DNA of 64,000 nt from a virus (IMGVR_UViG_3300037312_000330:64001-128000), one strand, 5' to 3'. Counted from the stretch's first letter, positions 18,595 through 19,267 are shown. The notes: generated from the letters alone by a model not told the origin. Numbers and translations are program-made.

Positions 18595-18599
18595 GGCAG

Positions 18600-19215
18600 C
18601 ACAACCAACGTCAAATAATGCAGCCGGAATCCGGATATCTCCGGATTTCCATTGGGGCACCTACGAAACAATGCATCCTAGTCTGTAGATATCTGGTTGA
18701 TAACCAGTGCAGTGCGATGAACAGAGTTCGTCAATCCTAAGATCTACAATAGGCGTAACGATGCAACCGAAAGGCGTATAAACCACGGGTAAGCGTGAAC
18801 TTACTCGTGAGGGTGAATCGCGTCAAATTCGGCGAAAGACAAACACTGGACGAGTGCCACCGCAGCCGCGTACCACTATGACTCCTTTATGTCCAACGCC
18901 GAGCCAAACACAGTGACAGGTGACTAATCATCACTATCCACCGTACTGCACGGTGGTATCGCCTTGAAAGCGTTTTGTCATGTGGAGGTGTAGAGACTTG
19001 ACGGCGCGCTCCTAAATCAGCACTCACCTCCTGGATTAGATCCCAGGAACTCCAAGCGACATTCGATCTGTGTGGCGCATAGCCTCGTACGATCGGTTTC
19101 TCTTGGGTTAAAAAGGTGTGGCATTTATCGCTATATGCTGACATGGAGAAGACAAAGTCCAACGGTGGCTATACACATCACCTCCGGGTGCATGATGCTA
19201 CCGAGCTTCCTTAGC
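18600..19215 (+). ncRNA. Group I intron-like ribozyme, intergenic, no exon identified
   Basis: P AAATTCGGCGAAA 18825; Q AACGCCGAGC 18895; R GTGTAGAGACTTGA 18988; S AAGACAAAGTCC 19149; P4 TTCGGCG/CGCCGAG, P7 GACTT/AAGTC, P3 CGCGTC/GACG(G)CG, P9 CGGTGGC/GCTACCG; ends approximate. Confidence 0.85.
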
Positions 19216-19267
19216 GTAAACAACCATCGCCGGTCTGACCGGCATATCTTCGAAAAGGAAATAAATC

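Follow-up and report, generated by a model that had tools for sequence, protein, structure and literature searches.

The window analysed here is a stretch of 64,000 nucleotides (nt) from a virus (IMGVR_UViG_3300037312_000330:64001-128000), part of a 248,884-base-pair (bp) IMG/VR jumbo-phage record. In it, a gap of 784 nt, with no open reading frame (ORF) of note inside, separates a divergent gene at 17860-18483 on the minus strand from an ORF of 229 amino acids (aa) at 19268-19957 on the plus strand. An earlier reading of the sequence alone (the sequence-only reading) had placed in this gap a free-standing group I ribozyme without a host gene to splice. Homology and covariation confirmed that plus-strand positions 18626 to 19205 form a genuine group I ribozyme of the IC3 type, ca. 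580 nt long from its first hairpin (P0) to the omega-position G (omega-G). It is of the self-splicing type, with an intact catalytic core, and apparently working.

Identification of the IC3 core

Comparators were fetched by a shared P3-P4 string, which gave six tRNA introns, five in tRNA(CAU), four of them at the Rfam gathering score, and one, likewise confirmed by Rfam, in tRNA-Leu(UAA). A second pattern added further phage IC3 introns, located in tRNAs and protein genes. Eleven confirmed IC3 introns were aligned (alignment A1), and a covariance model (R1) was built from A1 with the window excluded. The pairs of P3, P4, P5, P6, P7 and P8 covary in this alignment, with 97.6% of the cells paired and 10 doubly changed pairs, and none of 500 shuffles reached the observed level. 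R1 matched the window at 18811-19047 with 62.3 bits (E of ca. 1e-14), its sole match in the 249-kb genome. Once the insertions at the periphery are collapsed, the window agrees with the 11 introns at 52 of their 54 invariant columns, and the two that differ are the two sides of a single P5 pair, in which C-G has been replaced by A-U, a compensatory change.

The group I family of Rfam (RF00028) gave no match at the gathering score, at E<=10 on the region, or genome-wide. It does match the small comparators at 50-69 bits, and its failure here is attributed to large insertions, of ca. 50 nt in P5, 75 nt in P6, 130 nt in P8 and 150 nt in P2. The silence of RF00028 was rejected as evidence of absence because the purpose-built R1 matches strongly; the covariance search proposed by the sequence-only reading thus failed with the general model, even at E<=10, and succeeded with the IC3 one. 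Since the Rfam model misses IC3 ribozymes with large insertions, more of them may hide in phage “intergenic” gaps. BLAST against the phage collection gave no match, and pattern-based searches of the viral collection with the two flanking proteins found nothing.

The helices run in the order P3-P4-P5-P6-P7-P8-P9 with the P3/P7 pseudoknot topology, and the P, Q, R and S elements, as well as J3/4 (AAA), J4/5, J6/7 and J8/7, are of the IC3 type, all on the plus strand. The elements that the sequence-only reading had named are at or within a few bases of where it had put them, and its impression of a tRNA-Leu(UAA)-type IC3 core also held, the closest cores being those of tRNA-Leu and tRNA(CAU) introns. 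The 5' part of the core (18819-19008, P3 to J7/3) was delimited by the R1 alignment and by identity at invariant columns. P3 (18819-24/19003-08) is followed by the P element with J3/4 and the 5' strand of P4 (18825-18834; P4 pairs 18828-34 with the Q element, 18897-18903). Next come P5 (18838-41/18890-93) with its extension and P6 (18904-05/18987-88) with an extension of three hairpins, a shape that the members described below build from differing sequences. The R element (18989-19002) comprises J6/7, the 5' strand of P7 with its bulged A (18993-99) and J7/3 (GAC). P7, GACTT/AAGTC as previously read, pairs 18995-99 with 19155-59, plus G18993-C19160 across the bulged A18994. The guanosine site is therein, G18995-C19159 beside the bulged A and closed by G18993-C19160, and the same arrangement is seen in all 11 comparators. 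P7 covaries in the comparator set and in a distant cousin, L205 (GACUG/CAGUC). P8 (19009-12/19145-48) carries a branched extension of ca. 130 nt, and RNAalifold detected compensatory pairs both in P8 and in the branches. The S element (19149-19160) consists of J8/7 (AAGACA, 19149-54) and the 3' strand of P7 (AAGTCC, 19155-60). Finally, P9 (19163-69/19197-19203), topped by an apical hairpin, is followed by an A and by the omega-G, G19205. P9 covaries completely between members (CGGUGGC/GCUACCG, CCAGAAC/GUUCUGG, CCUGGA/UCCAGG and others), and the omega-G lies 1-2 nt past it in 11 of the 11 sequences that cover the site. The core is canonical and contiguous from P3 to P9, so a circularly permuted group I layout does not apply; only the putative substrate strand, CCUU, is 3' of the core.

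Very large P5, P6 and P8 insertions are also found in other phage or metagenome IC3 introns located in tRNAs (L143 3221-3528 on the minus strand, L181, L189 and L190), and the P8 insertion of L143 contains a T-arm-like GGTTCGAATCC motif. In the Rfam-confirmed phage tRNA(CAU) introns L140, L141, L147 and L148, the terminal-G position (Azoarcus-type ..AAACCAG|AAUCC) reads ..CCUA|AAUC with no G nearby, and they may have a shifted 3' splice site or an unusual terminal nucleotide.

Relatives, ancestry and the remodelled ends

Relatives were sought by a gapped core pattern, by the downstream protein and by the divergent neighbour. As the sequence-only reading had advised, the same core was looked for in related phages, and 11 further distinct members of the window class were recovered, every one at the same locus and in soil or rhizosphere-type assemblies, besides the cousin L205, which has flanking exons. 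The full-length members are L196, L197, L206 (identical to L207), L208, L209, L210, L211 and L212, and the partial ones L187, L203 and L204. R1 recognized nine other members with E values from 5e-12 to 2e-18. Although the neighbouring proteins are only 45-55% identical (87% in L212), the core hardly varies. The ribozyme is present in each of the 11 alleles of the locus that could be seen, and alleles without it were not found (two DNA runs contained only the source contigs). The jumbo phages of IMG/VR syntenic for DUF7873 (L149-L180, G001-G005) were discarded as intron-less alleles; they have no ribozyme, but the genes next to it are absent from them as well.

Five independent Logan contigs from different runs (L198-L201, L204) all start at one position inside the invariant J6/7-P7 string (CACGTGAAGGTGTAGAG). 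The simplest explanation of this shared start is a break of the assembly graph at a k-mer common to co-occurring variants, in which case several variants of the ribozyme are present side by side in the samples.

Outside the core, the architecture is kept while the sequence changes, i.e., in P0, in P2 and its branched domain, in the three hairpins of P6, in the branched P8 and in P9. P0 (18626-18650), directly 5' of the guide position, has a stem that covaries fully between members (GGAAUCCGG.., GUGGC../..GCCAC, GUAGA../..UCUAC, GCAGCA/UGCUGC, GUCCAGGA/UCUGGAC). The guide position itself (AUUGGGG, 18651-18657) lies immediately 5' of P2, where the confirmed tRNA IC3 introns have UUGAG|CACG and UUGUG|C, and ends in an invariant G-run, GGGG in nine members and GGG in L211 and in the second copy of L187. 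P2 and the large domain specific to the class occupy 18658-18818: CACC (18658-61) pairs with GGTG (18812-15), and J2/3 (AAT) follows. By homology and covariation (CACC/GGUG against CAUC/GAUG in L205), this is the real P2, and the hairpin at 18784-18809, taken for P2 by the sequence-only reading, is better described as a P2.1-type branch. The extra multibranch domain noticed there does exist (18663-18783, plus strand) but lies inside P2 rather than before it. Within the RNAalifold consensus fold, P2 encloses Pb (18662-65/18775-78), Pa (18672-77/18760-65), a branched part (18678-18759), a conserved block (18752-18783) and the mentioned hairpin. Pa has compensatory changes (UGCAUC/GAUGCA against UGCGUC/GACGCA in L187), and the block GCGUAACGAYGCAACCGAAAGGCGUA is conserved out to L205. 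No Rfam family matched the P2 domain, even at E<=10.

At the 3' boundary there is a tail hairpin (19205-19215) that opens with the omega-G (G-C-U, loop UCCUU, A-G-C; CCUU at 19209-12). Its stem reads GAUU/AAUC in six sequences, UUGAUU/AAUCAA, GAUC/GAUC, GUU/AAC in two and GCU/AGC in the window. While the stem covaries, the loop CCUU is invariant across the class, and it is complementary to the invariant GGGG with two wobbles. The new conserved elements of the class are P0, the P2 domain, the G-run and, at the omega-G, the CCUU hairpin.

Two relatives speak to the origin of the ribozyme. L187 carries an HNH endonuclease gene (phrog_2081, E of 2e-15) inside the P2 region; its start is right behind GGGGCACC and its end falls in a repeat of P0-GGGCACC, so that a duplicated P0-guide-P2 segment flanks the gene. 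The other is L205, on a 281-kb phage contig (IMGVR_UViG_3300049182_000044). It shares with the window class P0, the block of the P2 domain, the IC3 core, a homologous leader, an intergenic non-coding site and the association with HNH genes, and differs by compensatory changes in P2, P3 and P7. Its guide is AUUGUG, with GUG pairing with a 5' exon ending in ...AAUCAU| through a U.G wobble and AUU pairing with the 3' exon |AAU as P10. The exons pair in a 21-bp hairpin (-23.4 kcal/mol) whose loop contains the 650-nt intron, a hairpin homologous to P0 lies in the P1 loop, and the HNH gene starts 30 nt past the 3' splice site. Unlike the window class, L205 keeps this canonical P1, P10 and long exon-exon hairpin, is found at another locus with other neighbours, and has no CCUU tail hairpin. 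On this comparison, the lineage is one of mobile IC3 introns inhabiting non-coding RNA and associated with homing endonucleases, from which the window element descends. It is not a ribozyme without intron ancestry, given the HNH gene in P2 of L187 and the canonical intron of L205, and “free-standing” was in this sense a misnomer; the host “gene” is the leader of the 229-aa gene. As previously read, the window copy itself contains no endonuclease ORF. A homologue of the L187 endonuclease (51% identity over 77 aa) is encoded at genome positions 134654-134881, outside the window. An uninterrupted target hairpin of the L205 type, beside a homologue of the gene upstream of L205, was not found in this genome.

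The canonical P1 of the lineage (exon CAU with GUG, including the U.G wobble) is, judged by homology to L205, lost in the window class. A U.G pair is missing from every member at the site, adjoining P0 on its 5' side, that is homologous to the L205 5' splice site. Instead, the flanks of P0 form an all-Watson-Crick covarying helix in L208 (CAUU/AAUG), L210 (CGUU/AACG), L206 (CGUUC/GAAUG), L187 (CAUUC/GAAUG) and L211 (UUCAA/UUGGG), and are unpaired in L196, L197 and the window. No pyrimidine run is present in the leader of L196 and L197. An exon-exon hairpin like that of L205 was tried for the window class and was not significant (z from -1.7 to +1.3). The ribozyme is flanked by mRNA leader, with neither tRNA nor coding exon, and a canonical P10 can be drawn in some members only. 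P1 loss, guide change and CCUU hairpin co-occur, whereas L205 has the canonical P1 and no tail hairpin.

Promoter-like box and gene neighbourhood

The motif that the sequence-only reading had noticed right before the ribozyme is a recurrent gene-start (promoter-like) box, TGTAAATA, at 18587-18594 on the plus strand. The form CTGTAAATA occurs six times in the window, against 0.1 expected, always on the plus strand, and in the whole genome 10 of the 16 boxes are found at most 80 nt ahead of the ATG of a long ORF on the same strand, against 1.3 for random positions. Boxes of this type resemble the T4 late promoter, TATAAATA. At this locus, the box and its gene are 674 nt apart with the ribozyme between them, and the box ahead of the ribozyme is conserved in L196, L197 and L212. 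With the box in this place, the transcript probably starts near 18600, and the ribozyme would be the first ca. 600 nt of the operon RNA. A second GAATCGCGTC in L197 and L198 was dismissed, as it falls inside a coding region.

Past the tail hairpin, the remaining untranslated leader (19216-19270, plus strand) contains a hairpin (19229-43) and the start of the 229-aa gene, which, as already noticed from the sequence, has its own Shine-Dalgarno (SD) sequence (AAGGA, 19255-59) and an in-frame TAA at 19262 ahead of the ATG at 19268. The ORF is complete, with homologous proteins of 222-226 aa, and therefore misses no N-terminal exon. The spacing from omega-G to ATG ranges from 56 to 72 nt among members and the frame relative to the gene is not kept, so that this stretch is non-coding and a coding 3' exon after the ribozyme was rejected. 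No split tRNA was found around the ribozyme by the intron mode of ARAGORN at default stringency, in agreement with the absence of flanking tRNA halves reported before, and the matches at 80% stringency are noise. No terminator was found between the ribozyme and the 229-aa gene; a bidirectional one is located at 17827-48.

The divergent neighbour (207 aa, PF26209 family) serves as a context marker of the locus. The sequence-only reading was right to call it a gene, as homologues exist and adjoin the ribozyme in L187, L196, L197 and L206-L212. Between its start and the ribozyme leader lies a conserved hairpin (GCAAG..CUUGC / GCGCAA..UUGCGC) followed by UCAAA(C/U)UA, at 18513-18527, with counterparts at homologous positions in the same ten sequences; it may have a regulatory role in the divergent promoter region. 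Every member has, ca. 55-75 nt 5' of P0, a purine box (AAGGAA/AAGGAG/GGAGG; 18568-18576 in the window) that is not followed by a start codon and is complementary to the invariant UUCCUU of the ribozyme tail.

Convergent with the divergent neighbour, a PF01885 gene (RNA 2'-phosphotransferase of the Tpt1/KptA type) is found in L206 (4168-4854), L207 (1794-2480), L208 (4118-4747), L210 (1691-2314) and L211 (4157-4837); the window has at the counterpart position an ORF of 265 aa (17021-17818) without Pfam or PHROG match. Downstream, a circularly permuted tRNA-like gene (21927-22034) runs from the T-arm, acceptor 3' strand and CCA through a linker hairpin to the acceptor 5' strand, D-arm and 5' strand of the anticodon stem. 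It has CTATACA on both flanks in the window and is kept in L196 (8640-8745) with other flanks. A link between ribozyme and permuted tRNA through this heptamer was discarded as coincidence: the L196 ribozyme retains GCUAUACAC and the flanks of its permuted tRNA differ. A second permuted tRNA-like module is found at ca. 21692-21823, and a GroES/Cpn10-like gene (22226-22510; PF00166 at 8937-9227 in L196) is just ahead of a tRNA array. PF01885 genes, tRNA array and permuted tRNAs together suggest an RNA repair or processing neighbourhood.

Possible function and comparison with known systems

The explanation that we favour, tentatively and at somewhat less than an even chance, is that of an IC3 ribozyme that became fixed in a jumbo-phage operon, within the 5' untranslated leader, and processes the RNA in cis at its own 3' boundary. 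Transcribed as the first ca. 600 nt of the operon RNA, it would have lost the ancestral 5' splice-site helix and turned the guide into the invariant G-run. The G-run would dock the CCUU loop, in a P10- or P1-like pairing, and bring the 3' boundary to the active site, where the RNA would be cut either by hydrolysis after the omega-G, G19205, or by guanosine attack after a CCUU wobble pair at ca. 19211/19212. Such a cleavage would detach the structured leader of 600 nt and leave the mRNA with a defined leader of 55-62 nt. In a fuller version, which we regard as possible rather than probable, this is a domesticated ribozyme whose guide was retargeted from the 5' exon to the loop just past its own omega-G, which no longer splices; as a self-cleaving leader dependent on guanosine or Mg, it would mature, and through the P2 domain perhaps regulate, the 5' end of the operon mRNA. 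The sequence-only reading had proposed a deliberately transcribed ribozyme that might process this end; the box ahead of the ribozyme fits the transcription, and the processing stays a live possibility.

Several observations count against this explanation. L206-L211 lack the TGTAAATA box, and we infer its promoter role from motif statistics. An ordinary intron that has to splice before the downstream gene can be expressed would be under the same purifying selection in its core. Both sides of the G-run/CCUU pairing are invariant, which puts the pairing beyond a covariation test, and by chance each transcript offers 15-18 candidate partners for the G-run, for which reason complementarity alone was rejected as a way to choose the guide partner. 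Among these partners is UUUCCU, far on the 5' side (18491-96), with which L196, L197, L209 and L212 would form a canonical P1 if plus-strand transcription began inside the neighbour gene; CCUU|A in the tail is a further candidate for a P1 with a U.G pair. Moreover, the proposed tail hairpin keeps the omega-G in a base pair and would have to open before the G could reach its binding site.

The main contender, which we consider rather unlikely though a serious one, is an ordinary two-step self-splicing intron in the 5' untranslated region (UTR), a selfish passenger that lost its endonuclease and whose exons would be joined at 19205|19206. The 5' splice site would be either a non-canonical one at the P0 flank (e.g., GCAU|UC) or the canonical UUUCCU|A at 18496, on transcripts begun further upstream. 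The cousin L205 is canonical on paper, the omega-G is invariant, as exon ligation expects, and L187, L208 and L209 retain the ancestral CAU in the flank of P0; however, no member has a U.G pair at the homologous 5' splice site, and the flanks of the window class, unlike those of L205, form no significant exon hairpin. L206 and L212 could form a P10 of 3 bp (AUU with AAU) and L196, L197 and L209 one of 2 bp, but P10 fails in the window, L208, L210 and L211. UCCU|AU would form with AUGGGG a P1 of 6 bp including a U.G wobble in L196, L197, L209 and L212, yet UUUCCU is the reverse complement of the SD of the neighbour, hence conserved anyway, and is located upstream of the promoter box and behind the bidirectional terminator. 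Ordinary splicing would also leave the invariant CCUU loop unexplained. An inactive relic or a purely structural leader, acting without catalysis in stability, protection of the mRNA 5' end or protein binding, would agree with the loss of the canonical P1. Nevertheless, all the catalytic-core positions invariant in active IC3 introns are retained (the G-binding pair of P7, the bulged A, J8/7, J4/5, J3/4 and the omega-G), in at least 10 lineages with ca. 50% protein identity, and a mere scaffold would not need them, so that we hold this reading to be quite improbable.

That the ribozyme is allosteric, with the P2-inserted domain (18663-18783) as a ligand- or factor-binding module controlling operon expression, would fit either chemistry but appears improbable. 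The block of this domain is as strongly conserved as the catalytic core, out to L205, and the site in the 5' UTR, directly upstream of the SD, resembles that of the Clostridioides difficile tandem discussed below (PMC3984707, PMC9481103). On the other hand, the domain lies within P2 and not upstream of the ribozyme, it could equally be a peripheral module for tertiary contacts, and no known aptamer family matched: an Rfam scan of 18450-19350 at E<=10 gave only a chance SD-like match, to DUF2815 RNA (17.6 bits against a cut-off of 41.2). Folding predicts that the tail affects the SD of the window element (P unpaired 0.06 to 0.54) but no such effect for L196, L197, L203 or L204, so that SD sequestration was also rejected as the cause of the invariance of UUCCUU. 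A free-standing ribozyme acting in trans on RNA bearing CCUU or CCCU, or circularising itself, as the sequence-only reading had entertained, is highly improbable. The G-run has no convincing 5' exon partner in cis and the region is rich in unusual RNA genes (the permuted tRNA-like gene and the tRNA array), but there is no terminator before the downstream gene, the ribozyme is always directly upstream of the same gene family, the CTATACA link to the permuted tRNA fails in L196, and no target could be identified; neither circularisation nor trans action gained specific support.

The comparison indicates a group I ribozyme family that is fixed in phage mRNA leaders and has its substrate-recognition end remodelled. 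The nearest known relatives are the IC3 introns in tRNA genes of bacteria and phages (Azoarcus-type tRNA(CAU) and cyanobacterial-type tRNA-Leu(UAA); L011, L032, L072, L075, L079, L082 and L139-L141), whose core is almost letter for letter that of the window, in P3/J3-4/P4, Q, J6/7-P7-J7/3-P3' and J8/7-P7', with the guide directly 5' of a P2 starting with CAC and the omega-G after P9. The window element differs in being outside a tRNA, ca. three times larger, with the P0 hairpin, a P2 domain of at least 150 nt and extended P5, P6, P8 and P9, and in having a G-run as guide and no U.G pair for a 5' splice site. By function, the closest analogy would be GIR1, the lariat-capping ribozyme of twin-ribozyme introns, a group I derivative that lost the 5' splice-site function and cuts at its own 3' boundary, making the 5' end of a downstream mRNA. 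GIR1 is eukaryotic, resides inside another intron and has a rearranged core (no P1, a DP2-DP2.1-P10 junction and branching chemistry), whereas the window has the standard IC3 core. If the domesticated version were true, the window ribozyme would be a bacterial-virus counterpart of the GIR1 principle and, among natural group I ribozymes, only the second to serve as a 5' UTR device; cleaving instead of splicing, it would show the conversion of a selfish intron into a viral element for mRNA processing or control. The lineage allows a comparison of three states, namely canonical (the cousin L205), endonuclease-bearing (L187) and endonuclease-free (the class members).

Group I ribozymes have almost always been described as introns in tRNA, rRNA or protein genes, and cases outside a coding or tRNA gene are rare. 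Phage group I introns with homing endonuclease genes in their loops or adjacent to them, such as those of T4 td/nrdB, SPO1 and PhiPA3, interrupt essential protein genes (PMC3984707, PMC11620839). The window lineage resembles them in its phage genome and in the HNH genes of the relatives L187 and L205, but the window element interrupts no gene and has no endonuclease. The tandem of a c-di-GMP-II riboswitch and a group I ribozyme in C. difficile (Lee et al. 2010; Chen et al. 2011; cited from reviews) is described as the sole natural case of a group I ribozyme in a bacterial 5' UTR and as unique to the species (PMC3984707, PMC9481103). There, the aptamer is upstream of the ribozyme, and two mapped alternative sites of G attack decide whether the ribosome-binding site (RBS) is retained (reviews PMC3984707, PMC9481103). 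Like the window element, the C. difficile ribozyme is part of a 5' UTR, shortly before the RBS and start codon, and outside any coding or tRNA gene; the window element differs from it in having no known aptamer, in being of the IC3 type and in having a phage as host. Beside that tandem, this locus is a second, independent case of a group I ribozyme in a 5' UTR, with more than 10 natural sequence variants.

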